Source: Marsupella aquatica (Eukaryota; Plantae; Marchantiophyta). Taken from it: a stretch of DNA of 64,000 nucleotides. Below, piece after piece: positions 2,958 through 52,557 of this stretch. The translations under genes and the position numbers were made by a program. The stretch covers positions 7,960,234 to 8,024,233 of the forward strand of contig OZ316894.1 of the NCBI GenBank assembly GCA_973895155.1. The letters are read 5' to 3'. How positions within the stretch are numbered: position 1 is the first letter of the stretch; the number at the start of each line of letters is the position of its first letter. Under the pieces are notes generated by a model. It worked only from the letters and a program-made list of their open reading frames with translations, did not search any database and was not told where the DNA came from.

Positions 2958-3279
2958 TCTGACTTCCTGAAATCAAGTCCAACAATGCAAAGTTAGCTCT
3001 GTTTGTTTTTCAAGTTCAGTTGCAGAATTCAGGTTCATGATTTCATGAAGCAAGGTTCTTACCTTGATAGTGGAGTCGGAAGTTGAATTTGCAGCGCCTG
3101 TTGTTCCCGCTTAGAAGAGTGTCACTGGTATTTTTATCCCTGATTTTGGCTTAGCTTATCTCCTTCACCTCCCTGGCAGATGCCTAAGCTGATCGACCCC
3201 TCCCCACTTAATATCGTTTGCAATGTCCTCCCCAATTTGGACCTCGTCCCTTCGGCAATGGTCGATCCTCCCCAGGCCT

Positions 3280-15178: not shown

Positions 15179-15775
15179 TTGAGGCTGGATCGAACACAAA
15201 CTTGAGATAGAGCTTTTTGATGGTTTCACGTGGACTTAAACAATTTTCAGAGTGCTAAAACATGTGGACTATTTATATGCAGTTTGATGAACTCCTCATG
15301 TATACACACTCTACGACAGTGCATTGCGGATTGAGGCAATTAATTTTGAGAAATCAACTTTATTATCTTTTCCAGGGTAGGATTCTGATTTTCAAGCATG
15401 TACTTTGAGTGTGACTTTCCTCCATATTGATGTCTAAACTTCACTTGTAAATTTGTCACTGGTGTCACAAACGTTACTTATTCCAGACCTGTCTGCTCAC
15501 ATTCCTAATAGGCAAACAAATACTGGAAATGATGAAGGCACAGAGATTTACGTTCATAGTATCATTCTGATGACACTGTATGTGATGCTCTATTTGTATG
15601 CAAGGAGAAGGTGCCCTACTACAGTGGATTTGAGAAACTGGGCTCTGTGGGTTTGAGCAATTGGACTGTGGTTGGCATCGGTTGTACAACTGTGACGGTA
15701 GGCCCAATTTTGTATGCATGTCACTCTGATTCAGTTTGAAAATCATAGTTTGAATACAATTTCAATCAAGCTAGC

Positions 15776-18700: not shown

Positions 18701-19769
18701 ATAACTTTGGATTGGTCTGAAATGATGGCCATGCATCATTATATATTAGAGAATGAAGAGACAGTGGCTCCATGGTATAGGTACATAAACCCTAGAAACT
18801 CTCCTATCCTTAGGCATATGGATCATAATTATGTTTCCCCATTGTGTTTGTATATTCATGGTGGATCGTGCACTAATGTCTTCAGTGTTGTTGTTGCCAT
18901 GCAGGATATATGATGCTACCAATGAGACTGTTACCAAACGAAGAGTGGATTTCCGGAAGGAGTGGATGAGGAAGCCTGCCAATCGAAGAAAACCAGTGGA
19001 ATTTCCCGTAGACTGCCAAGAATTGCCACCTTTCAGGGAATGGTTTCAAACATTAGTCAATACCCATAATTTTGAGAAAGAGTCTGAGCGGTCATTACTA
19101 TCTGCATACTCCACACCACCTAGTTTGAAGGCACGACTGTATAGGGCATGTAGAGCCTATGGGCACCATTGGAGGACTATTCCATCCTTGGGGTGTTTGA
19201 GTGATTGTGATTCTGGTGCTTTCAGCACTTTTGATTCTGGGATGGCTTCTACATTCACTGAGAAGCGAGTGGACAGGTCTGGTGCAACCATAGAAGAATC
19301 TGTACAGTATGTAGGGGCCTTGACAGATATCTTGGTACTGAATTATGGCAGCTTGAGGAAAGAGGTGATTCTTTTCAAAGGGAAATGGGCAGATCCATCA
19401 TGGACTCCTAAATCCTCTGCCAGTATGAGGTATACCAAGTCTGGTCTTTGGCAGGTGAATTTCCATAGAGAACTGGGTGTGTCCAAGAAAATGGATTACG
19501 TTTTCCCAAAGCAAGTGGAGCAGGTTTTCTTCCACCCCAATGAGAAGGGGATAGCATGGAGAACAATCCTCCACAAAGAATCCAGGTCCACAAGGGTGTT
19601 AGGTGATTACACAGACGTTGATTTCCATGCTACAATGGAAAACAATGCCAAATTACACATCGAATTGGCTAAGGCCTGTAGGTCCAGAGAAAATCCAGGA
19701 CCAAGTACTGGTCCCAAACGAGGCAGAGATGCAGAGGGATCTGCAAGAAAGGGCAGGCCTAAGCAGTGA
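15776..19769 (+). CDS. CACTA TnpD/Tnp2-type transposase (Transposase_21 and associated domains), 3 exons, ~1219 aa, apparently intact
   Basis: Exons 15776-17659, 17870-18780 and 18905-19769 with GT-AG introns total 3660 nt, in frame. Motifs: CPCVNC, RYFPIIPRLKRLY, FGLALDGVNPF, NLPPW, TINDYPAYG, LPYW/LDPMHCEKN, GLKSHDFH, WMYPIER, VFPKQVEQVFF. Confidence 0.95.
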
Positions 19770-19867
19770 ATAGGTTTTAGCTAGGTGTGTGAAGTCCATA
19801 GATGGACTACATGTATGGACTATTTATGAAATCAGACTAATGGTTTACCCATTTGTGCAGTTGGTGA

Positions 19868-22800
19868 ATGCAGCCTGTGAAAGGAAGATTGCAAGGGTTG
19901 TCACATTCTGTGAATCCTTATGAGGAGGCCCGAAATCGGAACATAGAGCATAATGTCAGAATTATGCGTGATCTAGGACTGGGGCCAGACTGCAAGCTGA
20001 TGTGTGTGTTGATATGTCTATTGCAAATTTGATTCAGTAGATGGAGTTGTCAGGTTCATGTTCTGTTTTCATATTCCAGATTGGTCTCATACTAGTATGG
20101 ATCCTGTACATAAGTACTAGTGTTATGGTGTTGTAGATTCATTTTGCATGTATGTTTGATCTGCATTGGTGTATGTTGATGATTGCTTTGTTCCTTAGAG
20201 GCCCAACCACACATGTACAACGAGAGAGAGGAAAGCCTGCTTTGGTGAAAGGTACTTCAACTGAAACATTGCCAAAGAGGAGGAGCTCTAGACTATCAGA
20301 AGTTACCAAGGTGAACATGGCAGAGTTTGGTGATGATGGCTATGGTTCTCCTTCTGAGTATGACACTGAGGATTCTGACATTGGAGGGTCAGAACCAGAG
20401 AGTGCACAACAGGTAATGCTTGAACTTCATCATCCTAATAGGAAGGGATCCTTGTCCCTTTTTCAAATTATATGTTGATATGCTTACGTTGTCCATGATG
20501 TAGGTACAGAAACAAAATCGTGGTCCTAAGAAGACTGGGCCTGGTGGAGGTGGGCTAGTGAGATGTTGGAAAGACCCAGACACTGGACTCTTATATGAAA
20601 GTGAGTGGATTGTACTGTTCTACTTTTCAGGTGTGTTTGGAAGTTGATATTCTACTTGGAAATGAAATTAATTGAAGTGCTTTGGTGTTGTGTGTTTGTT
20701 TAGTGGTTCCATCAGCATCTGAAGGCAGATCAGGTCAATCTGATGTACTACATTCCAGAGGATCTTCAGGTAATACACAATCTGCTCGTGTTGCATATGC
20801 AAGTACATTTGCTCAACTTTTCAATCATGTACATATTTTTTGATTGAATGCATGTGTGTGCATTGCAGGAGGGGCCTCTGAGATGCGCAGGGAACGAAGG
20901 CATGCTAAGAAGCAGTTTGATAATACTGCCAAACAACGAAGGGATTGCGGAGAGGTGCCCAAACACATTAAAGTGAGTATTGTACTTGTTTGTAGATTTA
21001 GACAAATCTGATCCTCTCTGTTGTTGTGTGTATAAAACCTGGACTCTGCATAAATTCCAGAGTTATGATCTGACATTGTCTGTGAAATGCAGATTTATGA
21101 CAATGATATTGATGATTCTGATGGCAACAAACAATACTGGCTGGAGGAACTTCGTGGCAACGTACTCAGAGTCTTTGATGTATCAAAGCCAAAATGGACT
21201 GATCATCCACAAGTTCATACAACCACAGTGTGGAATAACATGGCAGCTGAGTGGGAGTATGTGGGTGGGGAATTTATTAACACCAAATTCCAGAGTCATT
21301 GTCGTGGCATATTGAAGAGAGAGCGCCATAAAATGCATGTTTATTGGAAGAAAGTTTGCAATGAGGATCCAACCAAACTTGGGCCATCTGGTGTTGATCC
21401 AAAGAAATGGGCAGCTTTGGTATCTCATTTTACCAGTCCAGCATTGATATCTTTGAGTAAACAGATGACTGATAAAAGAGCACGAGTGCAAGATACCTCT
21501 CACTTTGGAAGGGGAGGGCATGCTGCAGCAGCAAAGAGAATGGTAAATTGTCTATCATTTTCACTATCAATTCTGTCTTGTTTGTGAATCTTGATGAAAA
21601 CAAACTCTGTGATTTCTCATTCATTGTGTGTTTGAACAGAAGCAGAAGAGAGGATCAAGCCCAGGTATATCTGACCTGAAAGAAAACCATGGTAGTCAGG
21701 GTTCATTGCCAAAGGTGACAATGAGCCCATCATTGGCAAGTGCAGAAGGTCAGACTGGTAGTTTTGTGGGAGCAAAGGTGAGCCCATCATTGGCAAGTGG
21801 GGAGGGTAAAAGTGCTAGCTTACTGGGGCAAGGAAACAGACATGGATCAGCTGTGAGTATTGTCATACCAATTTGATTTGTACATCATTCTCCATTTGAC
21901 AGAGCCAGTGTTGTGTCGTTTGTAAGTTTGACAGTGAGACTGTTGTGTTGGTTTGTGGTTCATTTACAGACCCCACATTCAAAAGAAGAGATCACTGCCA
22001 TTGGGGCTGTGAAATTGGATGTCGCTGAGTTGAAAGGCACTGTGAGGGAGTTGACAAACATGATGACTACATGGATGGCACATCACCCCAGTAATGCACA
22101 AGTTCCAACAGTTGTGCCTAGTCACAGTAAGTTGACTACAACTACCAAACAAGGTAGTAGAAAGCGATCTCTTACTTTTTCAGGCGATAATGAAGGTAAA
22201 ATTCTCTATCATGTATACACTGTCCATTCAATGTAATTATTGTGATGTGTATATGTCATTGCATGTTTATAATGTTCTTGCATGTTTTTAGTGTGATTAT
22301 ATGTTGCTGGTGTATACATGTTTGTTTATGCATTTCTTTTGTGTGTGTTTTATGACAGCATCTTTAGGGGAGCCTCCTGTGTCGCAGGGAAGACCAACTG
22401 ACACAGCTAACAGTACTCTAAAGCAAACTGAATTGGAAGTGAACCTTTTGCCATCTAAGTTGCCCAAAGAAGCCATTTCAGATGTCTTTCAGTTGCCAGA
22501 GGATAAGTCGACTCAGTTGACACCAGATGTAACCCCAGAATCATCTGAGTTGCCAAAAGAAACTCCCATTCCAAGTGAACAGGATGACACTCCATCAACT
22601 AGAAAGGGAAAGAAGAAAAGGAAGAAAGGATCCTCAGCAAATGCATCACCTGCACAGAAGAAACCAATGCAGTCTCCTAACCCCGTTGCAAAGGTAAATG
22701 TGTGTTTGATTTGAGTGTTCTTCTATCTTTCAATTTCTGTTTATTGCATTTTTAACAAAATGTGTTGTTCACAGTTTGCAAGAGGAGATTTGGTGAAGAT

Positions 22801-29665: not shown

Positions 29666-30908
29666 TCCTCCTATTCTGATGTACAACTCGATGTGAAATG
29701 AGCAACGTCGTTATAGCAGCACTCCAGCACTCCATCACTCCAAGTAGAAAACTTTAAGACAACTGCAGTACGTACAGACATCAATGACAGCCCTGAGCCC
29801 TGACTGGCTGACTCCAAGAAGAAACTCCTGAAAATTGCGGTACGTACAATCAGTGGACAGTCACAGAGACAGTACGTCATCACTATTGCCGAGAAGTGGT
29901 ATCTATCAACGTGAGTGAGCCTGCGTCAGAAGGTCTCGCTTGACCACCGATCATTTTTATCTCGGACGGTATATTTTTACAAAGAAAACTCAGAAAGCGT
30001 GCGAAAGCACCAGGCTTATCACACTTGGGAGTCTGATCATTAGGGTCTCATTCTTTGTACTTCTTGTTAGTAGTCAGGGCTACTGACTGCCAAAAATCAT
30101 GGCCGAAACTATTTTGACTACGAGGACCCTCCAGTATAGTCTCCACTTGGCTGCCAGCAGGGCTGCACCCCTGTTTCTTTTTCTGTTTAATATTTGTCTC
30201 CACTTGGTGCTAGCAGCACCTTGGTCTGTCCGCTGCCCGCGGATGATTGTTCCATGTTGATTATATGTCCCAATTTGATGAACCTTAACTCAGGTTATGG
30301 TCACAAAAGTTAAAAGGATTATGAAATTTGTAGTACATGTCATTAGCATAAAGGCTAGTGATAGAAAAAACAAAAAAAAACTTTTACACGAATCTGTGAA
30401 AAGTTATAACCATTCCATTTGCCATCATAAGCTTAGAGACTGTGAAAAAGTTATAACCATTCCGTTTTGCCGTCATAAGCTTAGAGACGCCCTATTATCA
30501 GGCAAACCTTGAGAAACAGATCTGCGCACTGCTTCAGATGTTCCATCTCTTGTATACTCTGTCTTGTACGGCTGCGATTTGTGTGTGTAGTAGATTCACA
30601 AACGTTTCCTCTATTGATCTCTGGATTGAAGATCGTCATTTGCTCTCCCGACACTGTAGATTAGATTCTAATAAAAAAAGACAGATGCACTTGACATTCC
30701 ACTCCAGGCGAGCTACAGACAGACGGGAGTAGCAGGAGAGAAACGATGCAAATCACTACGTACTTCTGAGATTACAAGGTTTGGGCACAGCAACTGTGAG
30801 TATTATTAATAGTTCTTTAGGTTAAATGTGTCGTCGTGGTTTCCCAGTATTCATGAAGAGACCTCAACCGGATGCAACCCACCTTCCAACTGACATAACC
30901 TACGGGCG

Positions 30909-31188
30909 ACCCTGGGTTAAATCAACACCGCATTAATGCGCTCCAAGTTTAGCGGCACACCGTACGCTGCCCGTCACGAAATCCAATGCCGCCTGCCCGT
31001 TCCCCGACGCGGCCTAGGTTTATGTTCTACCATTTCTCCTTTGACTGCCTAAACTGTGTTTCTGTCCGTCGTCCGTCCGTTTTGAAATCGGGCGGGAGCG
31101 CGAACCGACTCCCCGACCCTGCCAACGCTACCCTCCCCTGCCCTGTCTCGACAGTCGACTGCTGTCGAACCCTGCGATCCCACTCAAG
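30909..31188 (+). repeat. MULE left terminal inverted repeat
   Basis: Reverse complement of 41738-42017; the ORF track shows the same spurious peptide MPPARSPTRPRF.. on opposite strands. Confidence 0.96.
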
Positions 31189-33030
31189 CACGCTGCACAC
31201 GACCATTGTTTAGGTTCTATCACATTTCGCCTTCGACCAATTTCAAAACTCAAGCCCGACAACTCACTCGGACATCCTGCTCAAGTAAGCAACTCATTCA
31301 GATGATCGTTGCTGCATGTCAGACGAGTACTTTGTCTCTGGTGTTACCAATTAAATGGATTGTTTCAATGTCGCTCCCAACTCTTGCTTCAGATTCACAG
31401 TTTATGTTCTACTCAGCGTTGCTTTGGTACTGTCATGCAGGGAATGGCACCATCTCGGCAATGTGCCGTAGGGCCTAGGAAGGGGAAGCCTCCTGTTCCA
31501 CCAGAGTCAGAATGGGAGAAGTTCCCAATAGCCAAGATGAACGAACATTGGATGCGAGCTAAAAATCCATCCCACAGAAGAACATTAGGGTCAGGATTTC
31601 TTTGCAAAATCATGACGGATGACTCATGTCAGCACTTTGTGAAGAAGCAGTCTTTTCTGGATCACATGCGATCAGTACATCGCATGAATCCAGAACCGTG
31701 TCCGGTTGGTCGTCCCAAAACGGCAGCACGGCAGAGGTTCGACCATTTTGCGTTCATTCCACACACGAGTACTAGTTCATGTTCTGGTATGGATTGATTT
31801 CATTACTCCTGGTTTATGTTTTGCTATTCAGAGAATGCTTTGGTTTGTGTGTGCCTAAAGGAATCCACTGAGTACGGCAGCCACAATTCACAACAAAGAG
31901 TTGACTTCGGGTTCCTACCCTGCACGAGTGTGGAAACTCAAGCGACAGCAAATGTCGTGGTTGCTACGATGGGCGAATAACCTCAAGTTAGCTCATGAAG
32001 GGGATGAGGATGAGACAACATGGGTTCTGAGTAAGGCCACAGAGCGACCGGTACAATGCGTGGAGAAAATCTAAGCGCTTCACCAGCTTGCTCAACGCTG
32101 TGAAATCAAACGTTGAAGATTTCTGGAAAAAGCATAGACGCCAAATTGATCCAGAGGAGATGCGAACTAGGGTATGTGCAATGTAGTTGATGTTTTGTCG
32201 GTATGAGGTAAGTTCATTGTAGTTTATGTTCTGTTGGGTGCCAGGTATGTGCAATGTAGTTGATGTTCTGTCGGTATGAGGTAAATTCATTGAGTTTATG
32301 TTCTGTTGGTACCGGGAACGTGAAATGTAGTTATGTTTTGTCGAGAAGGGTATGTGAATTTTACTTTATGTTGTATTGCTATATTAATGCGGTAGTGATG
32401 TTTGACATATGAAATGCATCATTGTCATAGGCAATGCTTCCAGAAGATGTGGTCGAATGGAGCAGTGACGATGGGATGCCCCAACTGGATCTTTCCCGCT
32501 CTGATTTGGACGCTGACAACATTGTATATAAGAAGCGTGTCCTTGTTGAGAAGGACCCACCTCCGAACACTAGAGCGAAGGGTAAGGGTAAGGGTAAGGG
32601 TAAGGCCCCATGTAAGAAGCCTGCTAAGAATTCTGAAACACAAGGACAGAGACAAGGCTTGAGGTCTAGGGCCAAGGCCACACCGGGAAGGAACACCTCC
32701 ATCGACAGCCAGGTTAGGCACATTCATATGCTATCTATTCAGGACATTAATGTTCCAAGCAAATTCATGTTCTTTCCTTTGTATTATGGAATGCGACTCT
32801 TTGTACTTGTGTGCACGAAAAAACTGTAGGTCCTAACAGATCGTCTACACGGAAGAGAAGGCCAAGAACAGCCAAGAACAGCCAAGAACCAACTCAGAAG
32901 AAGCTAAAAAACATCAACAACACTCTCCATGTACCTCACATTGTCTTTGCCTTTATTCCAAGACCTCCTATCCTATCGCAATTTTGTATGATGTGTTTCC
33001 CTATGCCATTCATACTAGGCATGTCTCCTA

Positions 33031-33210
33031 GTTTATGTTCTGCTTCTGGTATATGTTTTGCTTCTGGTTCATGTTCTGCGCCTGGTTTATGTTCTGCTCT
33101 GGTTCATGTTCTGCTTCTGGTTTATGTTCCGCTCTGGTTCATGTTCTGCTTCTGGTTTATGTTCCGCTCTGGTTCATGTTCTACTTGTGGCTTTTGGTTT
33201 ATGTTCTGCT
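33031..33210. repeat. 17-18-bp tandem repeat GTT(T/C)ATGTTCTGCT(T)CTG, ~10 copies, probably intronic
   Basis: Directly visible; source of the spurious FWFMFC-rich ORFs. Confidence 0.9.
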
Positions 33211-34497
33211 GAAGATGTTTGTCACGGGTTCCAGACAGTTGACAACACAGATGATGAAGTTGAAAAAGAAAGGGGTGGAGGCAGGAAAGACATTGATGGG
33301 GTCACACAAGATGGGGCAGAGGACGCCACTAGTGAGCATGCTTCACAAGAACAGGCCGGAGAGGATGATGATGATGGGGCCATAGAAGATGGGGCAGAGG
33401 ATGCCACTAGTGAGCATGCTTCACAAGAAAAGGATGGAGAGGATGATGATGCCACAAAAGATGGGGCAAAGGATGCCACTACTGAGCATGCTTCACAAGA
33501 ACAGGCTGGAGAGGATGATGATGATGGGGCCACAGAAGACAAGGCAAATTCTGATGGGGAGACAGAAGATGGGGAGACAGAAGATGGGGCCCAAGATGAC
33601 GACAAGGCAGAGTATGATCTTGCCATAGAAGATGGGGAGACAAAAGATGGGGCCCAACATGATGGGGAGACAGAAGATGGGGCTGAAGATGATGGGGCCA
33701 CAGAAGACGGGCCCGAGGATGATGGTGTCCCAGGAGATGGGCCCCCAGAAGATGGGGCCCAACAAGAAGCTTCACAACAAGACAGCCAAGAAGCGACGGA
33801 AGAGAGTAAATTTGCAGAGGAACAGGAAGGAGATGGAGGAGAACCTACAGATGAAACTCGTCTGAAGGCATATGAGAAACGCTTGTCGGAAATTAAGGTG
33901 AGGCTACAATCTGTGTTCTTTCCTGTTCTATGCCATTTGCTGTTGTTATATTCCCTAATTCATTGAATGTCATGCCTGATGTTCTTGCACGGAAGGGAAA
34001 AGCAACAACACATTAGCAGGAAAAAGGTGCCTGGTCACAAAAAACAGGCAAAGAAGACAAAGAAGGTGTCTTTCCTCAATGAAGAACACACCAGTGCGCC
34101 CCTACCTGGTCTAGAATCATGGACTAAGATGAGATGGACCCAAGAATTGGGCAACATCATAACACATCACCTTGAAAACCTGACCAAAATTATTCCTCCC
34201 TATTCAGACTTAGTTGTGGATGGGGTTAGTATTCCATTCATCGACACCTATAATGTTGGAGGCAAATACAGTAGGAACACCTGGTTGCCTTTACATGCTG
34301 CGAGGCGCAAGACCTTCAGCAACATTCAAATTTGGCACTGGGTTTATCACACAAGGTAATCACCCTTTACTCGTAACAATCTGCTCAACACTTGATTCAT
34401 GTTTTGCATATGTCCTAGCCGTATGTGTAATGGTTTATGTTTTGTGGCGCAGGAAAATTGTTGTGCCTTTTCGACCTATTCATGCAGATCATTCATG

Positions 34498-34793
34498 CCC
34501 TGGGGAATCACTCGTTGGATTATTAGAACGGGGTGCGAACAAATGAAGGGTCTTTTTAATCTTGTTGGTGTATTAATTATAATCAAAAATTTGTACTAAA
34601 GGCGTTTAAAAATCCAATTTTGGTAAAAATATTAGTTTTTATATTTAGCAAGGTATTTAAAAATTTGTCAAAGCCATATAATCAAGGGTACAAGGGTATT
34701 TTTAATTGAATCTATTTTTTATTTTATTTTTTCAAATTTCATTGGTTTGTTCTCACGTGTTTTAGGGGTTTTACTCTAAGTGATTCCCCAGGG
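34498..34793. mobile_element. 296-bp AT-rich MITE, 15-bp TIR CCCTGGGGAATCACT, 8-bp TSD
   Basis: TIRs at 34498-34512 and 34779-34793. Flanks are CATTCATG (34490-34497) and CATCCATG (34794-34801, one mismatch). Removal restores the reading frame. Confidence 0.88.
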
Positions 34794-35298
34794 CATCCAT
34801 GGCCGGGGTACCTTTTTGTGTGGGTGGGCCCGGATGGCATCCCAATTCTACCAAGGCATGTCGACTACCTACTTGCAAATCGCCGTACCCTCATCAATCT
34901 TCAAATTCAGAAAGCCTCGGGACAGACTTGTCCAAGCATTGGGCCTCTAGATGACGTTTGCAAGTTCCCTCTCCTGAAATGTGATCTTGTGTCCAAGGTA
35001 GCCTTCGTGTAAGTGTTTCCTATGTAAAGTGAACTGCCTGTTGGCAACTCTCAATACAATGAATTTTCCATATAATGGTGTAATGGTTGATTGTCCCCTC
35101 CCATAGTTTGACACAATGGTGTTTCACCCTTTTTATGCTATGGGGTATGAATGGTAGCCTAAATTGTGTGTTCGCCGACGCACTTGTCATGCCAAGACCA
35201 ATAATAAAGTCAACCTATCTTGAACAATAGCTGTATCCTGAGTTATGTTTTCACACGCATTGATATGCGACTGACATCTCCATCCGCGTGCAAGTAAT

Positions 35299-35960
35299 GG
35301 TTTCTGTTCTGTCATCAACATGTACATCATAGTTGATGTTCTGTCATCAAAATGAACATCGTAGTTTATGTTCTGTCATCAACATACTTGGGTTTCTGTT
35401 TTGTCATCAACATGTACATCATAGTTGATGTTCTGTCATCAAAATGAACATCGTAGTTTATGTTCTGTCATCAACATACTTGGGTTTCTGTTTTGTCATC
35501 AACATGTACATCATAGTTGATGTTCTGTCATCAAAATGAACATCGTAGTTTATGTTCTGTCATCAACATACTTGGGTTTATGTTTTGTCATCAACATGTA
35601 CATCATAGTTGATGTTCTGTCATCAAAATGAACATCGTAGTTTATGTTCTGTCATCAACATACTTGGGTTTCTGTTTTGTCATCAACATGTACATCATAG
35701 TTGATGTTCTGTCATCAAAATGAACATCGTAGTTTATGTTCTGTCATCAACATACTTGGGTTTCTGTTTTGTCATCAACATGTACATCATAGTTGATGTT
35801 CTGTCATCAAAATGAACATCGTAGTTTATGTTCTGTCATCAACATACTTGGGTTTCTGTTTTGTCATCAACATGTACATCATAGTTGATGTTCTGTCATC
35901 AAAATGAACATCGTAGTTTATGTTTTGTCATCAACATGTGCATAGTAGTTTATGTTCTGT
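35299..35960. repeat. 92-bp tandem repeat (~7 copies) built from three GTT.ATGTTCTGTCATCAA subunits, between the convergent MULE genes
   Basis: ACTTGGGTTT recurs with a 92-bp period (35390, 35482, ...). Confidence 0.93.
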
Positions 35961-36733
35961 CATGAGTTTTGTGTACTTTTGACCGAGTTATGGTTCATGT
36001 TTTGCATTCACTTGCATATTATGTGTATCACAAGATTCATTGTCAATGTTTTGCCGCACACATATACAAGGGTTACAACAAAGGGGTATTTTCTGTTATT
36101 ATTCATCATTTTCCAAGAGAGGTACAACATTCAGATCGATATTGACATTCATGTCAATATCTCTACCACCCCCTCCAAGATGAATAACACGGTTTGGAAC
36201 TACTGGCAAGGACGAATTAGCAGTCCTTCGCCGCCGCTTGCCTTCCTGATATTGTAGTCCTATCCTACATAGATGCTGTCTGTTAGATTCCCTAGTTACT
36301 TTACACTTTGAAGGCAGTGCACATGGCATCGGGCGTTCATCACATTGTATAGATGGTGAGTGAGTTCGCTGCCCTCTCTTGCCCCCATGGTAAATTTTTT
36401 TATCTATAACCCCCAAGTGACGCTTAGATGTCAGCCCTATAGGCCTTACAAATGCATCTGCAGGACCTATATTGGCCTTCCCAAGCACTTTCATTTGTTG
36501 TTGAGCTTTGAGTTTGGTGAGTGTGACTTGTGATGCCAAGAATGCTTGTTCTGTGAGGTAGTCATCTCCTTCAACAATAGCCAATTGCTGATCAAAAATG
36601 TGGATTAAGTTCGCCCTCATATTTGGCTCTCTATTCTGAACAGCTACAGTAGAGTGTTGTAAAATCTGAATCACAGACAATTACAGTAAGATGCTGCTAA
36701 CAAACATTGGCAGAACATATTAAACAAAGGTGC

Positions 36734-36870
36734 AGAACATAAACTTAAACTTACGCCGTCAACATGAACATGTGTAGAACATAAACCTCAACAAACGCCG
36801 TCAACATGAACATGTGTAGAACATAAACCGCAACAAACGCCGTCAACATGAACATGTGTAGAACATAAAC
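36734..36870. repeat. 42-bp tandem repeat x3 in a transposase intron (AGAACATAAAC..CGCCGTCAACATGAACATGTGT)
   Basis: AGAACATAAAC at 36734, 36776, 36818 and 36860. Confidence 0.85.
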
Positions 36871-38180
36871 TTAAAATAAACTCTGTAAACTTAAAGCCTG
36901 AGAGATTTGCAGAACATGAACCTGTTCAGGTTGTTGGGTGATGTCTATGTCCTCATGGACTCCGGTTGGTTGTCCTCCTTCCGGCTCTGTTTCTTCGTGT
37001 TGAAGCAGTTCCAAATGGTCAATGCCACCCATTTGAGTACCAAACCTGGACCCTAATTGTTGTACTAGAACACCTCCATCGAAGCCTCTAAATAAGAGAG
37101 CCTTAATCTGATGTTTACACATATTTCCCTCATCCGCCCATTTACAATCACAAGAAGGAAAGTTCGAGAATATATTTCGAACAATGTGCTCCTTCCCATC
37201 AGGCTTGGCACTTCTTACTATTGCCTGGTTGGGCAGGCTCGGATCAGGAAAATAGACTTTGTGGAATTTAATGGCATGCATGGCCTTGTGGAGGCTATTG
37301 AGGACAACCTCTTCCTTTTTGCAATTGATGACTCTCCCCCTTGCTTTGCACCGAAGCTGGTACCAAAAGAAAGGAAGCATAACCTGGAACAAAGAAGTGA
37401 CAACCCTGTCTAGACGCAGAGCTCCAATGGACCCAATATTCCTCTTGATCATCTTCTTCAATGTTAAATGCCAAGCTTCAATTGCACCATTTGTATTCTG
37501 GTTGGCTCGAGGCATGTCTCGAACAGCCCTCATCCACTTTGCTGTGATTCCACAAATGCATAAAAACAATAATTAGGTGTAATCATGAGAAAACTGCCAA
37601 GAAATATGCTTGACTCATCGCAAGGAAAAATGAGTAGGAGGTCGGGCAGAACATGAACCTGTTCTGTGCATCCAAGTGTCTTCAAAATAAGCTAGGAATC
37701 GTTGTTCCATGTGGTACTTTGCTTGGAAGGATCGCCACTTAACTTGTGCATGTCTTCCTCAGTATTGGCATACATGAGATCCCCCAGATCATCGTTCATA
37801 TCTAGAAGCTTGGTTCTATTTGGTACAGTCTTGATCAAATTCTCCCTCCAAGCTCTGTATACACAAACACGTAAGTGGGTTGGGCAGAACATGAACTTCA
37901 TAGGTCGAGTTACAAATGTGGTAACATTACTTGCAACACAAAATTTTTGACATGTGGAAGAACATACCGTCGAACATGCCAACTGCAAAAATAAATGGGG
38001 ATATCGGGAAAGACAACTTTCAATGTGCTGACTTCAGCCTGAGCACAGTCAATAATGAAGCAGCTAGGACTCCAATCAGGTTTGTGCGCCAAGGCTGTAT
38101 CCTTTACTGCCTTCAAAAAAGTAGCGATGTGCTCAGCTGATTCAGACTACTGGATGCACCATGCTATGGGTAATCCCATC

Positions 38181-39718
38181 CCCTGGGCCCCCAGCCTTTG
38201 TATTGGTAAGGGGTATACGTGCGTACAGCCCCTTATCACATACCCCTTATTATTTTTGGTCACCGATAGATTTATCTCTTGTTATTCTTAAAAACTTAAT
38301 TTTAGAGAATTTATTTACCCCTTGCAAAAATTATAAATCTACCATTAATCAAATTTAAAAAGGTCTTAAAATATTATAAATTTTTGAAAAATATTAAAAA
38401 ATATACAAAACTCATTAAAGGTATACCATAGAAAAATAGGTATCTATATAAAAAAAATTGTGTTGGAATGGAGAAGAAGACTCAACTTTAGCACATATAA
38501 CAATGAATCACTCTGTTCTAGCACATGTAATAGTGCTTTAACTTTAACAGTGTTTCTAGCACATATAAGAGTGCTTCATTATGATTTAGCACATGAAGCA
38601 GTGCTTACAAATCTACCTATTGTCTATAAAGGGCATATATGTAAAAGTACTTATACAACTATTTTCTAATAATCTTATAAAAGCACTATTTCTAGAAAAC
38701 ATTTTGCTATAAACATGTAAGAGTGTTTGCAAAAGTTCTGAACTAAGAGGCCGGGCACACATTTAGGGTTTAGTGCATACAGAACTTCTATCTGAACTAA
38801 GAGAACACTCTTGCAAAATTCTCAACTTATATGTCCTCCTCTTGTCTTCCACGTTTAGGGGTAAGGAAAGTTACCCCTAAACAAAACTCCAAAAAAGGTG
38901 TGCCTCCCACAGTCGGTCCCGCCAGTGCACGCCTCCCAGCCTTGCAACGTCCTGCTTTGCGTCAAACGCCACTTTCGCAAGCATCAAGTGTCGGCCTCCA
39001 CCCGCAACATTTCATTTAGGCCCCATAGCTTCCTTCATCCAAGGTCCGTAGCCAACCTGCAAGCTCCACTTCCCTCAGCCTAAACCGAACCTCTCGACTT
39101 GGTAGCACTATGTGAAATCCGGCGGCTTGAAGCTGAGCCCTAATTCCCTTCGACCCCGACTTTGACACTCCCTTGGACTCACTTTGACCCCGGGCCTTCG
39201 ACTCGTTCCCTTGGGGATTGAGTATTCCCGGCCCCTGCCCCGGGCCTTCGACTCATTCCCTTGGGGATTGTTTACTCCCCCTGCCCCGGACCTTTGACTC
39301 ATTCCAGGGCTCATTCCCTTGGGATTGAGTACTCCCCCTGAACTTTTGCCCTGCAAACACCCAAAACCCCCTAGAAATGTACCCCCAAAAACCTTTCACC
39401 CTAAACCCTCAAAACTCCAAATACTTTCATAACTCATCCTATTCACCACAAGTATTTGTTACACTAAACTCCACTCAGGGCGTGCCACGTGGACCAATCT
39501 CATCATGACGTGTGTCATGCCATATTACTGGCCCCCTTCAAGCAAATTATTTTGGCCGGCATTTTGGATGCCTTGGAATAGTTATAAAGAGATTGTCATA
39601 TAAAATATGGTCTTGTTGGTTATAAGTCGATTATAAAAATTAATCTGGAATTGATTTAAATGTACCCTTCGGCCGTTCGCACGTCCGGTCCATTATTAAT
39701 AACGTTGGGGGCCCAGGG
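38181..39718. mobile_element. 1538-bp non-autonomous TIR element, 13-bp TIR CCCTGGGCCCCCA, 8-bp TSD, inserted in a transposase exon
   Basis: TSD ATCCCATC at 38173-38180 and 39719-39726. Removal restores HQHQMGLPIAWCI on the minus strand. Internal ACTCATTCCCTTGGGGATTG repeats ~39150-39340; no credible ORF. Confidence 0.92.
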
Positions 39719-41737
39719 ATCCCATCTGGTGTTGATGAAAAGCAACGAGCGTGAAGAAAGGGAACTGCAACTGCACTGGGGTTAGAAAGGCAGAACATGA
39801 ACTAGAAGACAAATAATGAACTCAAGTACATTGTGTAGTGACATGGCAGAACATGAACTACAAGACATCAAATGAAATAGGTCACATGGCAGAACATGAA
39901 CTATAATACTAGAAACAAAATATATGAAGAGCAGAACATGAACTATAACAGAAGGGATAGACACAACAAAACATATGAAGATGGCAGAACATGAACTTCA
40001 ACAAAGATACAAAATGAAGTCGCATGGTCAAATAGGTGTGATGGGCAGAACATGAACCATAATTGAAGGAACAGACACAAGAAAACATATGAAGATGGCA
40101 AAACATGAACTAGAAGACATGGAATGCAATGAAATGGAGATCTTGAGGAGATGAAATGCTAATTACATACCCCATATTTATTAGTTGCAAAGGTCTATCT
40201 AACGCCAAAACTGATCCATGAGATAGGGTGATCATCTACGCTCTTTGCCAAGGTGACTACAATGAAAGTATGAATTCCTGCTCTGGTGGGCCCGCCATGT
40301 ACTCCTGTGAAAGAAGCACTCTCTCAGGATACATCCCCATCCATTTGCGCATCGATGCCTGGTCATTATCAGACCATAGCCAGGTCTCCTTGTCAACTTT
40401 TCGTTTGAGGTTTCGAAGATCTTGTTTAGAAACCAGGTCGTCTCTCCCATCGAAAGTTAGTGACACACCAGGATCAGTGGTATTGTGTCCACGATCATGA
40501 CCATCTCTTTCAAACTGCGATTGACAATGGAGGTCATAAATATCAAGGACGGACCATCCTGCCCTCAATAAGTCCTCAAGGTGCTTCCGGATCTCTTTGG
40601 TCAACCATGGAGCAATGCTGCATTTTGGTCCCCAAGAGGGCGGCCCCAATTGTGGATCCCAATCGCCATGCACAATGTCCCCTCTTTGATTACAATGCTT
40701 TCTGCAATTGGAACCGAGACAGAACATAAACCATTGCATACAAAATAAGATGGTAGACAGTAAAAACAACTATGTGCACAAAATTAGGCAAAACCTAAAC
40801 TGCAGCACATAAATTCATGTCAACGTGGACCTTGCAACGGACTTGGAGTATGCATAATTAGACAGAATGCATCCTTGCCTGTTTATGTAGGAGAGCTGAA
40901 CAGCATCAGGGTTGGCTTTCATCCTCTTCGCAATGAAATGACACTGACATCCTCGCTTGGCATGGTTGTTGAATGCATTCTTCCGTAATCTAGGTCTAAG
41001 TCTCCCAACTCCTGATGTTGGTTTTGTTCTAGGCAGTGGAGGAATAGCTACGCTACGCATGTCTTCCTCTTGTGGGCCATAGGAACACCAGAAGATGGCA
41101 TATTCTATCCAATCAGTGTTATTTGAATTAGATTTTCTTGAGGTTCTAATATGAAATGAGCTCTCAAATTTTGGATCCTTTCTGCCTTCGCCATCTTTGA
41201 AATCAGTGAGATGGTTCCATGGAATGAGAGCTTGGTCATTTGGGCTCCAAACAATCTGTAGTGACGAAAATTTCCCAGCCGGTGGAATCTGTATGTACTC
41301 CCATGTTTCATGACTCATTGGATTATGCAAAGGCTCCCAACAATTATCCTGCCACGGCGTTGGTAGAACATAAACTACAAGACGAATATTTCTGGTACAG
41401 AACTCACACCGCGCGATCGGGTGCATTTGCATTGCAAGGGCAATTGAAATTGAACTGCGATGTGTTTGCAAAGTAGTACCACGAACGCAAAGACAAAGAG
41501 CATGTGAACTGAAAAATACCAGAAACATTTAGGGGGAAAGCCAACCGGTGGAAATGAACAGCGGCATAACATGATATCAGGTGGCAATGGCAGAATCACA
41601 CGCACCCTTTGCTTGCAATGACAATCACGTTCAAAGTAGTGCCATCACAATCCTGACACTTCAGAATGAAAATCAATCTGCCATCATTCTACCGTGAGCT
41701 CGTGTGTAGGCGGTCCGGAAACGCGCTTGAGTGGACC

Positions 41738-42017
41738 CTTGAGTGGGATCGCAGGGTTCGACAGCAGTCGACTGTCGAGACAGGGCAAGGGAGGGTAGCG
41801 TTGGCAGGGTCGGGGAGTCGGTTCGCGCTCCCGCCCGATTTCAAAACGGACGGACGACGGACGGAAACGCAGTTTAGGCAGTCGAAGGAGAAATGGTAGA
41901 ACATAAACCTAGGCCGCGTCGGGGAACGGGCAGGCGGCATTGGATTTCGTGACGGGCAGCGTACGGGGTGCCGCTAAACTTGGAGCGCATTAACGCGGTG
42001 TTGATTTAACCCAGGGT
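41738..42017 (-). repeat. MULE right terminal inverted repeat
   Basis: Reverse complement of 30909-31188; followed by TSD CTACGGGCG. Confidence 0.96.
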
Positions 42018-43814
42018 CTACGGGCGTGGTTCATGTTGTAGACGTCAACAGGGCTTATTGAAATGACGAATCAAATGTAGAAAGAAAAATAATTTTAAAC
42101 AATCCCACACCGATCGGGTCACACCAATTTGCATTGGGATTCACCCTCACGCATGTCCATTTCTTACGGCAACACGAGGGAAGATTACCTCACACGTAGG
42201 AGGGAGCTACAGAGAAACGACCAATAGCCGCAGGGTCGGGAACAACCACGGAACCACCCATCTCCTCGGTAGCTGCACATCAAAATATGACCGGGAATAT
42301 GACATAGTAAAAATATGACATATACTATGTACGCCCTTGCATACCGTGATAATAATAGTTTTTTTTCTTTCAATCAATGAATACAGCCACATTTATTTAG
42401 AATTTTTTTTCTTTCAATCAATAAATACAGCCACATTTTATTTTGATGTGTGATTACCAGGGCCCATTTCAATCAATGAATACAGGCACATCAAATTACC
42501 AGCAGGGCCCATCTCCTGCAGACGAGGACAGCCTCATAAGTAGGAAAACCAAAACAGGAACCCGACAGAAGCAGACTTGGTTGCCCTCTCAATCAAGCAA
42601 CGGGATGTGGACATACAGCAACCACTGACACAGGTCGACGCTTCCAAAAACTTAGTTCAGAGGTTGGCAAATAAGTCTAAACAGGTTCGAAAGAGGCAGC
42701 GCGCAGTGACACTAGCGCATGTCTACCGGCCACCAGGAAAGTTGATATTATCCTGGGCTGCGAAAGATACACCTTGGATGGGCAATTTTCATCAGAGAAG
42801 CCACTGTTTCAAGTACTCAAGTAGAACTCTTAGACATCATCTTTGCATGACAATTACATCATCATAGTAGAATCCCATAGATAATTGTATTATTTACATG
42901 TTGTATGGCATTCGTTGACAACACTAAATCAAACCACAGCCGGCCTGCAGGTCTGGTGGATTATTCCTGCGTTTCATGGGCATTTACATCGCGAGCTGCC
43001 ATCAGCAGAGAAACAAGATTTATTTTTGCAAGGATGACGATGCAGCTCGCGATGCAGCTGATCGACACTCTTCTCATACGTACTGCAAGCTCTTCAAAGT
43101 ACCGTATTGCGAGTTCCCTATAGCGCCATGTCGGTGATCATCAGGAAGGCCTCAAACGGACATCTCCTTCACCCGGGGCCGACACTGACCATGATGCTGG
43201 CTGAAGGTTCTTGATGTTGATCGACATCCTGTTGCAAGTTGATGACTTGGATGAACGTTGTTCGAAAGCGGCGTTATGGTGGCAGTTTTCGAATAATTTC
43301 GGAACCCAGTCGATTGGATTCCAAATCCGATTTCCGAAGTATCATGGTGCTCCAAGACTGTTGTCATGGCATGGCGGCTTATATATGTCGCGCTTGGAGG
43401 AGATTTCCTACGATTTAATTGAGCAAGCAAAGCTGAAACTTGAGAGTTGATTGAGACAGTGCTGCAGTCATCAACCTCCGGAGATCACACATTTTATCCA
43501 TCTTACGAATTTTCAAATGGACACAATGTCGAGTTCGGTGAGAGATCCACAACCTTCCAATCCACAACCTTCCAGGAGACTCAGCGACCAACTTGCTGGA
43601 CAGGTGATCCAGAATCTCGACCCTTAATTTGACCTCGTTGAAATCTATATCATTCATTAGACTAGCTCGATAAGTACTGTTAGTAGGTAGCTGGAGACTG
43701 GACCTTAATTTGGCCGAATAGAATGCTGGTTTCGCTCTTTCGATAAGTAGGGAGCAAGAAGCTCAGCGAGATAAGATCAAATTGATTGTGTTCCCACAGT
43801 CATTCTCTGTTCTA

Positions 43815-46800
43815 ATGGCTCCGGAGACCGAACTTTTCTCCTATCATCAGGATACCATCGTGACTAGTCCAGATGATGAAGGTCGAAGTGAATATTGTTA
43901 TTAATAACGACGGTCCCATTTGCCTGTGTGATCAGTTTCATCAGGTGAAGAATTCAGTGTACGAGTTGTACAGACCGGCGGGCTCTCCTACGATAAAAAT
44001 ATTGTTCTTCCCTGGTTTCTTTTGAGGACAACTCTGACGCAATGTGGTCAACTTGGCTAAGTGAAGATGGGTCTTGCATTTGGCCCCATACTTGGTTGGC
44101 TGAGGAGTTTCCCGATGCTCATGTTTTGGCAGTTTCCTATAACTATGGAAGAATTCTAGCGTCACGCGGAGACCTAAATTCAACTAAGATTTTAGAAAAC
44201 AAGTCTGGAATATTAATGCAAGCGCCAGCTGAAGCCCGGGGTCACGCGTTTAAATTTATCATTGAAGAAACCATCATGTCAGATGTACTTGGGGTACTAG
44301 GCAGTGGACGGGTTCCTAATTGTCCTATCGTATTGGTTGGACATTCCCTTGGGGGCATGGTGATCAAGTCATTATGCAACCTGGCCCATGAGCGGTGCGT
44401 TCTATACGTGGGGAAGCACGACATAAAACATTCCTTGACAACTTAAGGGGAATATTCTACTATGCTAGCCCCCAGCATGGGAGCTCCGCTATGGCAAACA
44501 TGTATATTGAAAGTTCCCACCTGAGTCCAATAATGCAGTACTTTAAAGTACTAGACAACGGAGCAGAACGACTAAATGCAGACTTTGAACATTTATCCAG
44601 ACAGTATGAGTGGAAAGTTGCTGGACTTGGAGAAGTTGCTCCAACAAATTTGGTATTTACTCGATGAACTCTTGCCTTTAAGTCATTTCATTGTTTAGAC
44701 TCAATGTATGAGGAACTGGTAATTAGTGGGATTATGTACTTGAGTTCCCGAGACTGGTGCTTGTGGTGCGTGTTCTTTAGTATGGAAAACAATCATAGTA
44801 CATAAAACTTTCAATCTAAAGCTACTCTTCAGGGGACGGTCTAGACTGAAGCCTCTGTACTGTGACTTGGGGTGTAACTGAAATTAGGGGTGTGTAGACT
44901 GAAGCCCCTTGACTGTGGCTGTAGGGTGTAACTGAAATTAGGGCTGTGAGTGGAAAACAAGGATTGGGGGCAACTTGATATCTCTAAAAAGTACGCAGTG
45001 GGCTTGGATGTAGTCACCACTATTTTGTGGTTGATCTCTCTGATATGGGAAACAATGCTCCAATAACATCTGCGGTTGTCTAGCTCAACCTGGAATGTAC
45101 ACACAACACAGTCTAGAAAAACTGTACATAGTATTATGGGAGCACATCCAATATTTGTTGAGATTTCATCATGGTTGTGTAAGTTTATCTGAACATTCCA
45201 ACGAACCTCTGATGCTGTAGCTATCAGGGGTTTAATTTCGTTCTTTATCCGAGTGTGATTCCATATGTCTAGGGTATGTTGGAGCCGTACTTTAGGTATA
45301 ATACTGTCTGATCGATCTGAGTCTTTAATACGACAGAATCTTTTCGAGTACACTGGACCATTTGAAGTTGTTAACCTTCAGTAGTGTTGAAAGACCTTAA
45401 ATGGGTCTGGGTTTGCAGTTCAGGAGATATGGGCAACGTTAAGGAAAAGTGATGATGATCTATCTTATCCTGAGCAACAAATGTTTCTTGATGCTGCAAC
45501 TTTCTTTAATATTAATGAAGATTGGACTTTGGGTAAAGCTAAAGCAGTATGGAAGAAAGCTTATCATACAGATGAAGTTTCACTGCTTTGGCAAACTTTG
45601 GTGGACCGGTTACTGGTCGACGACGTGGAAGAGGATGACTCTGTAAAACTCCATGAACTACTACGAACTTTGGGGCAGAGAATTGCCACCGAGAATCAAG
45701 GCAAGCGCAGGAGTGCTACTGAGTGGCTGGGGATACTACGCGGAGCAGGTGACTTTGATGAACAGGTGAGTTGAACGAATCAACGTTCGAAATCGTTGAT
45801 CTAAACTTTGAGGCATTCGCAGGAAATCTAAGTCTTAGTGACGAATCCAGACAGGATGCGTAATTAACTCTCCTTAGCTTAAAAATTCCATGATGATCTG
45901 GATACCTGAATGGTAGTGTGGTATTTGATTAATCGCAGGACATTGATGCACCATGGCTGACTGCTGAGGGTGGTGATAGCAAGGATACTTCACACACAAG
46001 TACCCGGCTTCGTGGACTCAACAACAAGCAAGACAACTTGAGAGTCTCCATCCCCATAACAATTGATGGAGCGAGGGGCGGCCTGGAGGACTTGTCAGCC
46101 TTAGGTGGCATCAATGCGCCATGGGTGCCTGCTGACGGCGACGAAAGCGAGGATAGCAAGCATTCTAGTCCAAACACAAGTACGACGCATCATCGACTCT
46201 ACCAGAAGCAAGACTTGGAAGTCTCCATCCCGGTAACAATTGATGAAGCGAAGAGCCTGGAGGACTTCTCAGACTTAGCTCCACTTAACACTACGAAACA
46301 CCTTTTGATAACCAAGTTTCCTGGCTCTTCGCTCCCGGGAGATATCGGGCAGCTTGTTGCGTTACAGCAGTTGCAAATTCAAGATTGCGCGCATGTCGAC
46401 GAGCTTCCTGACTCCTTCGGGCAACTCATAGATCTGAAACGCCTAGTTATATTGAATTGTCCTAGTTTATCAGGGATTAAAGAGAGTCTTGGTAGTCTCA
46501 AAACTCTACGGAACCTGCGAATTCAAGATTGTGATGGATTGAAGGACCTTCCAGGAACTTTGGGGCGTCTCTGTGGTCTGGAACAACTCATTATATGGAA
46601 CTGCTCTGGTTTAACAGCGATTCCCAACACTATCGGGCAACTTGGGGCTCTCCGGCACCTGCTAATTCATGGTTGCGAGGGTTTGACCGGCCTTCCACAA
46701 TCCTTCAGCCAGCTAGAAGGTCTGGAACACCTGATTGTATCGAGTTGTCCACGTTTGACGGAGATCCCGTTACAAATCGGGCAGCTCTGGTCTTTAAAAC

Positions 46801-48544
46801 ACCTGCGAATCCAAGATTGCGAGAGTCTGAATATCCTTCCTGAAACCTTAAAGCAAGTTGGAGCTCTCGAACATGTGACGATATCTAACTGTTCGAATGT
46901 ATCTACGTTCCTGAGAGCTTATGGTGATGAGTTCCTTGAAGCGAGAGCTCCTGCCAGGCATGCTGAGCAAATGTCGACCACAAGCATGATAGCTTTTATA
47001 GCAGCACTAGAAACGGGAGGCCGACATAGCTATCTCTTAAGTACGCAGTGGCTATTAAATTTACAAGACCATGAAAAGGAGATGTTAGGATCAATTTGTA
47101 TGAAAACAGGATACAAGGTAACCTATCAAACTACCTCAAACACTTATTATGAGGGAAGTAACGACCATGTACAGAATATAGGCCCCATCAGGGATGGTGG
47201 TAGAGCTGTTGATAATGCAACATCGTCTGGAGTATGCGAAACAACTGAAAACTCACTTCCCAAGCACCTTCAAAGATTGCAGATTGACGATGGGTTTGAT
47301 ATGATTTGTTCATCTGGTGGATTGAGCGTAACACAATCAGGTGAGTTGGATTTTCCCTCTCATGTTATTTTCAGTATTCATCCGATGAGTTAGGTCCAAC
47401 GGAAGCACAAGTGCTCTTTTAGTTTGCTGAAAGATTTGAGCTTTCCAGGCATCAATCCGGGCGGAGAAGCCGATGATGGTCGACGCGTTGATAAGGCAAT
47501 ATGGTCTGTATCGCAAACAAGTGGTGACCTCGGTGGTGACAAACACCTTCACAGGTGCTGTACAGTTGATCGGGTTGGTATAAGTGGCGTTTCGAGCGTA
47601 TCCGTCGCAACAGAAACACGTGAGTTGGATGTACCCTACGCTGTTATTTGCATTCTTCATCCGATGAGTTTAGTGCAAATGGCAGCAAAACGTTCTCTCT
47701 TTGTCTTTTCTTATAGTTTTGAGCTTTCCAGGCAAGGAACGGGTGGACACTCGGACATGTGCCCCAAAACTTCTGCGAGTGAATTGCTGTGGTTCAAACT
47801 ACGCAACGGAGCCATCAGAAGTTTATTTCGGCAGACATCACATTGTAAAGCACTTTGGTGCTTGTTTAGTAACCCTTCCACGGCACGAAGATTTCGCAAT
47901 CTCAACAGTAGTTGAGCAGACCATAATTCTACCTACTTATCAATGGCGGGCCAGTGGGTTAGTAGAGGAGCATGTTAGTTTGAGAATTTTTGTAGAAACC
48001 ACTGTAAGCTGTTGCTTGAGGAGTGAAGATAACCCAAAGAAAGTACATGTGGAGATTTCAAAAATTCGAGGGGAGATCAAATATGTGAACATAGCAGACC
48101 CAAGAAATCATGACACATTCCTACAGTCTGCTCGTACCAATGTGTGGGGTCGTATTGATCATGGTGGTCTTTCGGAGATTGTCCCTTTCGAGTTTGTGGG
48201 AGGTGCAAATTTGGGCACTTTCAGGACACAGTCCTGAGGGCAGTGCACCTGGATCTACGACTGTGGAGTTACAAGGTCATGTTGAAAGGAGCAGACAAAT
48301 TCGTGGGAACCAAGCTCTTCTTTACCAGGATCGAAATTTCCCTGCAACACTGGAGGGAAAAATACAAAGATCTCTTACTCCTGAATCTGTCTTAGAATTA
48401 GAAATCAGGTATCAACTTGGACTTGAAAGTGATGAGCCTTGTGGATCCATGCCCAAAGAGGATGAACCATTTTGTGTGATTACCTCCAAACCTCATGTGG
48501 CTGATTTTGGTTGTCTTATAGAAATTCTCTTGTCCTCGTTTTGA
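43815..48544 (+). pseudogene. HNL-type NLR paralog 1 (alpha/beta-hydrolase - mostly deleted NB-ARC - LRR - C-terminal domain)
   Basis: IWPHTWLAEEFPDAHVL, LVGHSLGGMVIK, FYYASPQHGS. Only the NB-ARC tail remains (MFLDAATFF..LHELLRTLG). LxxLxIxxCxxLxxLP LRRs 46290-46910. Stop at 44024-44026 and frameshifts (~44410, ~48235). Confidence 0.85.
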
Positions 48545-50700: not shown

Positions 50701-52557
50701 TCTATACTTGGATCTCTGAGTTTGTGCTACAAGAAATAGCGCCGATAATTTTGATTTTTCCAAATATTTGCTACAATGTAACGTTTGCCGTTCAAGATTC
50801 TCAAAACGAACGGCGTTGGCCTCAAGTTAGTGTGGGGGACTGGATACAATGTATCGATGTACTGCCCTCTGCTCCATATCCCCATAAGTTGTAATTCTGA
50901 GAACTATACTTCGAAGTACGAGACTCGCCACTCGGATGACAGTCCGTTAATAAATCTTTATGATCTCTGGGGGTGGAGCTCTGGCATACCGCAGAGGTCA
51001 GCTATCTGGTCATAGTTTAATAACTACTGTAGTTCTGTGGTCATCAGGTCAACAGGGTTGGCTATCTGGTCATCGATTGACTAGTTTTATGGTCATGAGG
51101 AAGGGTTGGACGATAATCTGAGCAGGCGGCACGAACGGACGCTCGAAAAGACCTAAGATTTTTGGTTGTTCTATTTCAGAAAACCCATCAATCCCATATC
51201 TCTTGCCTTGGAGAGCCCCCAGTCGATTTGTTCATTGTCACTGCCTGGCCCAGCAATCGATGCCGGCTTGAGCTCACCAGAGCAGACGAGTGAGTCCGCC
51301 AATCAAATTTTGTAATCCGACCAGGGGACCATCCGCCCAAGAGGCATGTTGCGATGGTATGTGGATTTAAGCTCCTGCGATGGCCTTTGCGCTACTGGCT
51401 TGGGCTCAGGGGTAGACAGAATTACCTCTCCACTCTACAGTAATCACGGTTGATTTCTGTATTCATTTCGAATGTCAGAAACTCGGAGTTTACGGTTAGT
51501 TGGAGGCTTGAGCTTCCATGCCACTAGCGCGAGAGCTCCTCTAATGGCCGCCGCTCTTAGGCACCCGCCATGGAAGGTTTGTCCAAAACACACTCCACAG
51601 ATTCTCTCTTTTTCGTGAGTTGGTCCTGTGTACTGTGTGATGTTGTCGTCGTTCTTGAGGAACGCGTGTCTTTGGTAGACAGAGCTGGAGGAAAAATAAC
51701 TCATCAGCTCCTGTAGTTGCGACATGGAGGCCGACTTGGTTTGTAGACCATCAAGTTGACAATCGAGCACTGGCATAGTAGAGTAAGTTTTCGCAAGGAT
51801 GTCGATGCAGCTGACACTCTTCTCATACTGGAAGCTCTTCAAGTTACCGTTTCGCGAGTTCCCTGTAGGGTGGTGATGTCGGTGACCGTCAAGAAGGCGA
51901 GTTCCTTCCGTCACCCTGGCCGACGCTGATAATGACGTTGGCCAAAGGTTTTTGATGTTGATCGACGTCCTGTTGCAAGTTGATGTCCTGGATGAAGCGT
52001 GGTGAGGAAGTGGCGTTATCGTGGCATTTTTCAGATAATTTTGGAACCCTGTCTATTGGTTTCAAAATCCGATTTTCAAAGTATCATAACGCTCCAAGAC
52101 TGTTCTTATGGCGGCTAATGTTGCACTTGAAGGAGATTTCCTACGATTCAACTGAGCGAGCAAAAACTGAAACTTGAGATCGAGTTGATTGAGAGAGTGC
52201 TGCAGTCAACTTCTGGAGATCACACATTTTATCCGTCTTACGAATTTTCAATTACCTGCAAGACACAATGTCGAGTTGGTCGAGAAGGTGGGGCTTGAGG
52301 AGAAGTCCACAAGCTTCCACAATTCGGAGCGACCTAGTTTTTGGACGGGTAATACGGAGTCTCGACCCTTTATTTGGCCGCATCGAAATCTGTGTCATTC
52401 ATTAGACTACTTGAGTACTGTTAGTAGGTATCTAGAGACCCGACCCTTAATTTGGCCGAATAGAAATCTGGGTCACTCATTCTAGATAAGTAGTGAAGTT
52501 GACAGACCCAGCGACTAAGATGAAATATATTGTGTCCCACAGTGATTCTTTGTTTGA

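Follow-up and report, generated by a model that had tools for sequence, protein, structure and literature searches.

Sequence-specific anti-silencing by transposons has been called rare in plants (PMC12973397); in the literature consulted it is shown for Arabidopsis VANDAL, Spm and AtMu1. VANC21 was reported to bind a 9-base motif arrayed with a single orientation within introns as well as between genes and in terminal regions, motif density deciding whether binding takes place (PMC5735166). We analyzed a 64,000-nucleotide stretch of the liverwort Marsupella aquatica (contig OZ316894.1, positions 7,960,234 to 8,024,233 of the forward strand; hereafter the window), in which an 11.1-kb Mutator-like element (MULE) with two genes (30909-42017) carries many copies of a 14-base word. 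As described for Arabidopsis VANDAL21/VANC21 and VANDAL6/VANC6, a MULE is combined here with an accessory gene and a short, family-specific non-coding motif (PMC5735166, PMC10398659). The same-orientation clusters, the gain and loss of motif copies through tandem repeats and the tandem peptide repeats that the accessory protein carries are further likenesses to the VANDAL/VANC pairs as reported (PMC5735166). The element differs from them, as far as they are described, in a likely C2H2 finger, in the lack of a DUF1985 or DUF287 match and in a motif of 14 rather than 8-9 bases; two convergent genes, long terminal inverted repeats (TIRs) and the liverwort host also set it apart. Our favoured reading, to which we give about even credence, is that the word would serve as a VANC-like docking site on double-stranded DNA, with the element's own accessory protein as the candidate binder.

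The element was assigned to the MULE superfamily because of a match of its transposase to PF10551, long TIRs (arms of 281 nt, 98% complementary) and a 9-bp target site duplication (TSD); the range reported for MULEs is 8-11 bp (PMC6446971). The PF10551 match scored 29.5 bits (E = 1e-6; cut-off 27.6), and a SWIM match (E = 8e-4) fell just below the cut-off. Across 80% of the query the transposase is 66% identical to Calypogeia fissa P0001, the sole match among 690 candidates, which points to a liverwort or a close bryophyte relative as host. Intron 1 of its gene appears to use a GC donor (40878). A second, convergent gene had been part of the original prediction, and a plus-strand accessory gene was indeed found opposite the transposase. 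The empty site is represented by X3 and X4 contigs that link 30899 directly to 42018. Because hundreds to thousands of contigs, many of them with differing letters, cover the element stretch, it is indicated to be a member of a multicopy family, contig depth across the element not being equal to copy number. The copy in the window is dead, and activity, if any, would come from intact family members.

The word was counted in a strict form, GTT[TCG]ATGTT[CT]TG, and in a relaxed form, GTT[TCG]ATGTT[CT][TC][GA]. The relaxed word RGTTHATGTTYTRY is present in 52 copies within the element vs. 0.06 expected, and in one copy in the 52,891 bases beyond it vs. 0.3 expected. Expected numbers were taken from Markov models of orders 1-4 trained on the remainder of the window (0.02 strict and 0.06 relaxed copies per 11.1 kb), so that the 64-kb window is the whole background for the motif. 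Of the strict form, the plus strand of the element has 30 copies (31775-35993) and the minus strand 12 (36733-40720), with a single further copy outside the element (20054). The saturation of the MULE claimed in the original prediction was thus borne out (52 copies inside, 1 in the remaining 52.9 kb). The copies in both TIRs and at 31400 and 41364 hold in the relaxed form and fail the strict one, as they end in TA; its sites at 34395 and 35300 have one mismatch each. A purine stands at base -1 in all 52 copies and a pyrimidine at base +12 in 51/52, although neither position was part of the search pattern. Because of this fixed purine and near-fixed pyrimidine, the word was taken as 14 bases and not 12 (representative form RGTTYATGTTCTGY).

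A generic intron word was rejected as an explanation within the window, given the single copy in the other 52.9 kb and the absence of exact copies from a related locus, L001 (61% identity). No exact word was detected on either strand of the 1,404 bases of L001, two introns included, and an ordinary donor occupies about the position of the intron donor at 36921. L001 is a single 1.4-kb relative in which the word was not found and neither an accessory gene nor a motif of its own was seen. Among dispersed 9-mers in the element the word ranks first; in four other segments of the window no comparable dispersed 9-mer was found. The sole outside copy (20054) lies directly 3' of a CAG, inside 14507-21587. 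A one-mismatch copy is present in the host flank at 42029-42040, 3 bases past the right TSD; as a single case it may reflect chance or target preference.

All 52 copies lie in the 4,254 bases of non-coding element DNA and none in the 5,021 bases of inferred exons, exon limits being drawn from homology and phase, without RNA. Exons had been predicted to be avoided "mostly"; for the relaxed motif the avoidance is complete. The donor of accessory exon 1 at 31737 leaves the frame open; the motif counts took 31769 instead, with no motif copy affected. The word is found once in each TIR, in 10 of the 13 introns inferred and in the gap between the genes. The predicted amplification by several unrelated tandem repeats was also confirmed, with periods of 36, 18/35, 92, 42 and 43. 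Copies of the family differ in these repeats: the intergenic array is shorter in other family copies, and contig joints that skip 123-276 bases in arrays and 46-166 bases in intron 2 indicate gain or loss of motifs. A crude single-linkage clustering of the flanks, which gives a lower bound, yielded 14 families, with the purine conserved in 14/14 and the pyrimidine in 13/14. We concluded that the 14-base word arose many times separately. A neutral outcome of slippage and gene conversion inside the element would explain why tandem arrays hold most copies. It is a very improbable account of at least 14 unrelated flank families with only the word in common, of substitutions that spare the word and of its absence from exons. 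The spacings between motifs showed no helical phasing in a Rayleigh test of 17 hand-picked values (p of 0.6-0.7).

The sparing by substitutions was estimated in transposase intron 2 from family contigs of four runs. None of the 29 substitution sites fell in the motif vs. 6 expected (P = 0.0009); removal of 5 sites from one poorly aligned contig gave 0/24 (P = 0.003). When the motif mask was slid from -60 to +60, it was free of substitution sites at 5 of the 121 shifts, four of which were at -2 to +1. An insertion at 40054, carried by some family copies, makes the motif palindromic around CATG. Taken as a whole, the word is real and very likely functional.

The change of motif orientation in mid-element had been predicted and is present. 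All 35 plus copies (none right of 35993) lie to the left of all 17 minus copies (none left of 36733). The two genes converge near the midpoint of the element, with the transposase stop at 36099; this midpoint is at 36463 as the element stands and at 35843 after subtraction of the insertions. Because the genes converge there, gene sense and nearest TIR are inseparable as rules for orientation. The predicted following of the sense strand therefore fits the pattern and is not distinguished from a nearer-TIR rule. The only discriminating region is the intergenic array, in which plus copies run up to 95 bases beyond the transposase stop; its GTTHATG half-sites are found 17 times in plus and 14 times in minus orientation. 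Introns masked for the motif contain 38% T and 23% A, and the sense form is favoured over its complement by 10-18:1 per origin. The complement of the word contains CAG, which might act as an acceptor. The polarity requires no strand-specific or RNA-level recognition. Since arm symmetry is a confounder and the base composition of introns leads one to expect most of the flip, the flip lends no support to binding of nascent RNA. It is real, yet the least informative feature of the finding.

The word might instead work in RNA, as a splicing enhancer, branch point or site of an RNA-binding protein, or attract a host transcription factor. The intronic copies are all on the sense strand, and two of them form 5' splice donors, that of intron 4 (Table 1) and that of intron 5 (36910-36921, junction also from the P0001 comparison). 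Of the 10 introns with motifs, 7 have their last copy ending at a distance of 8-37 bases from the acceptor, on its 5' side, and the TTHAT core of the word fits the loose branch consensus YUNAY. We consider this reading improbable, since the TIRs and an intergenic array of 17 copies also contain the word, its 14 constrained bases are more than a branch point comprises, the rest of the window and the two introns of L001 almost lack it, and composition by itself predicts the sense bias.

The accessory gene is real; its product has a likely C2H2 finger and, at the C-terminal end, a conserved domain of no known family. Four homologues of the C-terminal domain were found among 1.84 billion representatives (E-values from 1e-17 to 8e-5, identity 30-44%), all of them unnamed or hypothetical. 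Their alignment has 11 invariant columns, and 2 of the 4 share their final residue position with the exon in the window. At the Pfam cut-off no family was detected in the accessory pieces or in the four homologues. DUF1985 and DUF287 had no match in the accessory exon pieces, which were scanned separately and with lower sensitivity, or in the homologues. Because neither domain was found, the element appears from its sequence to be an analogue of VANDAL/VANC and not a member. A PDB sequence search with the C-terminal domain gave nothing below E = 0.24, and Foldseek with the models of this domain and the finger gave no match at E ≤ 0.001; the AlphaFold models used are weak, with a mean predicted local distance difference test (pLDDT) score of 62 and 45, the latter for the finger model. 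A word-index search for homologues recovered 0 of 14 candidates for the finger exon and 0 of 59 for the C-terminal exon, and the atlas had no usable match for the C-terminal piece. The finger region was modeled as strand-strand-helix at a pLDDT of about 60, and the atlas lead was zf-C2H2 (0.88; 16% of members).

We infer that the word is bound by a protein encoded by the element. The motif is now defined to 14 bases, and two proteins are candidate binders. Binding by the transposase's N-terminal region, with arrays that aid loading, end-pairing or self-activation, is a serious though less probable account. The word is in both TIRs, the flip falls at the element midpoint once the insertions are subtracted, and mirroring between arms is the usual geometry of transposase sites. 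Aedes Muta1, as reported, has likewise an 8-9-bp TSD, a palindromic terminal motif and a short word inverted between its arms, and more 12-bp subterminal repeats give more binding and excision by its transposase (PMC5499845). For AtMu1, the transposase by itself was reported to bind and activate the family to which it belongs (bioRxiv 10.64898/2026.08.24.746577). However, the transposase sites described for Muta1 and AtMu1 are in TIRs. In Muta1 the repeats lie inside the 145-bp TIRs (PMC5499845), whereas here each TIR has one copy, about 110 bases from the end, and 50 of the 52 copies are internal, in introns or between the genes and reaching about 5 kb inward from the termini. No tandem repeats were found inside the TIRs, which with one motif copy each are not of the foldback type of Muta1. 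The two nested insertions, which are missing from other family copies as judged by contig joints, have similar ends and do not carry the word (0 copies in 1,834 bases). Because of the deep internal sites, these motif-free nested elements and the retained second gene, we preferred the accessory protein over the transposase. An element protein that acts through dense, family-specific motif clusters, predicted here, has been described for Spm TnpA and the AtMu1 transposase (bioRxiv 10.64898/2026.08.24.746577). By the same account, those proteins bind at the termini only, TnpA is of the CACTA superfamily and AtMu1 lacks an accessory gene, unlike the present element (bioRxiv 10.64898/2026.08.24.746577).

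If the word is a docking site for the accessory protein, the finger and neighbouring basic segments would read it, and the acidic tract or the C-terminal domain would recruit host activators. As with VANC, the bound protein would sustain transcription of the family or hold silencing marks off it. Selection would reward site density, so that new sites could arise wherever coding permits, even at splice donors, and be multiplied by slippage. The strand flip would be a by-product of the mirror layout, that is, inverted TIRs and convergent genes, together with T-rich intron strands. The proposal of an independent VANC equivalent is consistent with the missing DUF matches and with a motif pattern like that reported for VANC targets (PMC5735166); the binder and the effect on silencing remain predicted.

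Several points weigh against this reading. The observed/expected (o/e) ratio of CpG is 0.44 in motif-rich introns and 0.44 in exons, so that no local protection from methylation is seen. The selection test covers one intron, its substitution sites are not independent events, and contig placement on intron 2 could favour conserved seeds. Among the 12 of 29 indel rows covered, one family variant has a 3-base insertion at 40054 that interrupts the motif copy at 40046-40057. The finger is likely by its residue pattern and weak leads, and a single finger would not normally read 14 bases. Furthermore, no accessory homologue with flanking DNA was found. The CpG o/e of 1.2-1.3 in the TIRs vs. the low values in introns and exons would fit a methylated element body.

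The two genes of maize MuDR are convergent in layout. MuDR resembles the present element as a TIR MULE with a transposase gene (mudrA) and a second gene (mudrB); in the account consulted MURB binds MURA and aids insertion, with no mention of internal motif arrays (PMC12973397). A liverwort or bryophyte description of such a system was not found in the literature consulted, which is weak evidence of absence. We regard as tentative, and somewhat less probable than the docking role itself, the broader proposal that bryophyte MULEs may possess a sequence-specific anti-silencing system independent of VANC, with an undescribed zinc-finger protein family that has an unclassified C-terminal domain and with a 14-base target particular to each MULE family, which would fill the non-coding space as far as the splice donors and be mirrored about the element centre. 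If true, non-homologous anti-silencing in a liverwort would represent convergent evolution of the strategy in early-diverging land plants, and the new protein-motif pair would be usable for targeted activation.

Table 1. Positions in the window of the MULE, its genes, motif clusters and nested insertions.
Feature	Position	Strand	Remarks
Left TSD	30900-30908		9 bp; sequence equal to 42018-42026; empty-site contigs
Left TIR	30909-31188	+	9-bp near-palindrome at start; single motif copy 31018-31029; CpG o/e 1.22
Motif copies in accessory-gene introns	31400-34444	+	Relaxed copies: 17, spread over 5 of the 8 introns
Accessory gene (inferred)	31444-35220	+	About 8 exons; broken by a frame change near 32045 and by the nested MITE; 3' end uncertain; from translations and phase checks
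Accessory exon 1	31444-31736	+	Likely C2H2 finger C-x7-C-x11-H-x4-H, then basic GRPK stretch
Acidic repetitive exon	33235-33897	+	Aspartate plus glutamate 38%
Conserved C-terminal domain, family unclassified	34063-34997	+	Two exons with the MITE in between; 4 homologues
Nested miniature inverted-repeat transposable element (MITE)	34498-34793		CCCTGGG ends; 8-bp TSD with one mismatch; motif-free; contig joint 34489-34794, loose ends 34498/34793
Intergenic array	35299-36004	+	About 7 units of 92 bp, each with 2 full motifs, 1 degenerate one and inverted half-sites; 17 relaxed copies including tail
MULE transposase gene	36099-41318	-	6 exons; disrupted by stops, by frame changes and by the 1.5-kb insertion
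Motif copies in transposase introns and before the start	36733-41375	-	16 relaxed copies; all 5 introns and upstream of the start
Motif copy forming the intron 4 5' splice donor	37647-37658	-	Junction placed against P0001; offset 1 from the 5' splice site
Nested 1.5-kb element in transposase exon 3	38181-39718		CCCTGGG ends; 8-bp TSD; motif-free; contig joint 38172-39719
Transposase intron 2	39765-40170	-	7 motif copies; 0/29 substitution sites within 84 motif bases
Right TIR	41738-42017	-	Single motif copy 41897-41908; CpG o/e 1.34
Right TSD	42018-42026		Identical to left TSD; empty-site contigs

The main element has a 9-bp near-palindromic start and a 9-bp TSD; the inner CCCTGGG of this start begins both nested elements, which have 8-bp TSDs. 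Summed contig depth over the bin that contains the MITE (34237-34803) was 124,170 in X3 and 45,188 in X4, vs. 2,469 in X1 and 788 in X2. This depth hints that the MITE family is very large and is not alike under the two organism labels. C-rich arrays with units of 25/50 bases and similar-looking wording were noticed at 3267-3819 and at 39188-39340; BLAST gave no link between them.

Elsewhere in the window, open reading frames (ORFs) at 15749-19769 resemble what we take to be a CACTA transposase, with a presumably PHD-like ORF upstream (14507-21587). A cluster is present in duplicate at 43050-48513 and 51803-57893, and further at 60595-61533. Its ORFs are presumably NB-ARC-like, LRR-like and alpha/beta-hydrolase-like, resembling bryophyte hydrolase-type nucleotide-binding leucine-rich repeat (NLR) genes. 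The tandem array at 5612-10571 repeats about every 580 bases, with offsets that are 79-89% identical and with internal inverted matches. To the right of the MULE, a repeat of high depth at 42175-42741, with loose ends near 42310 and 42394, is probably another small transposon.

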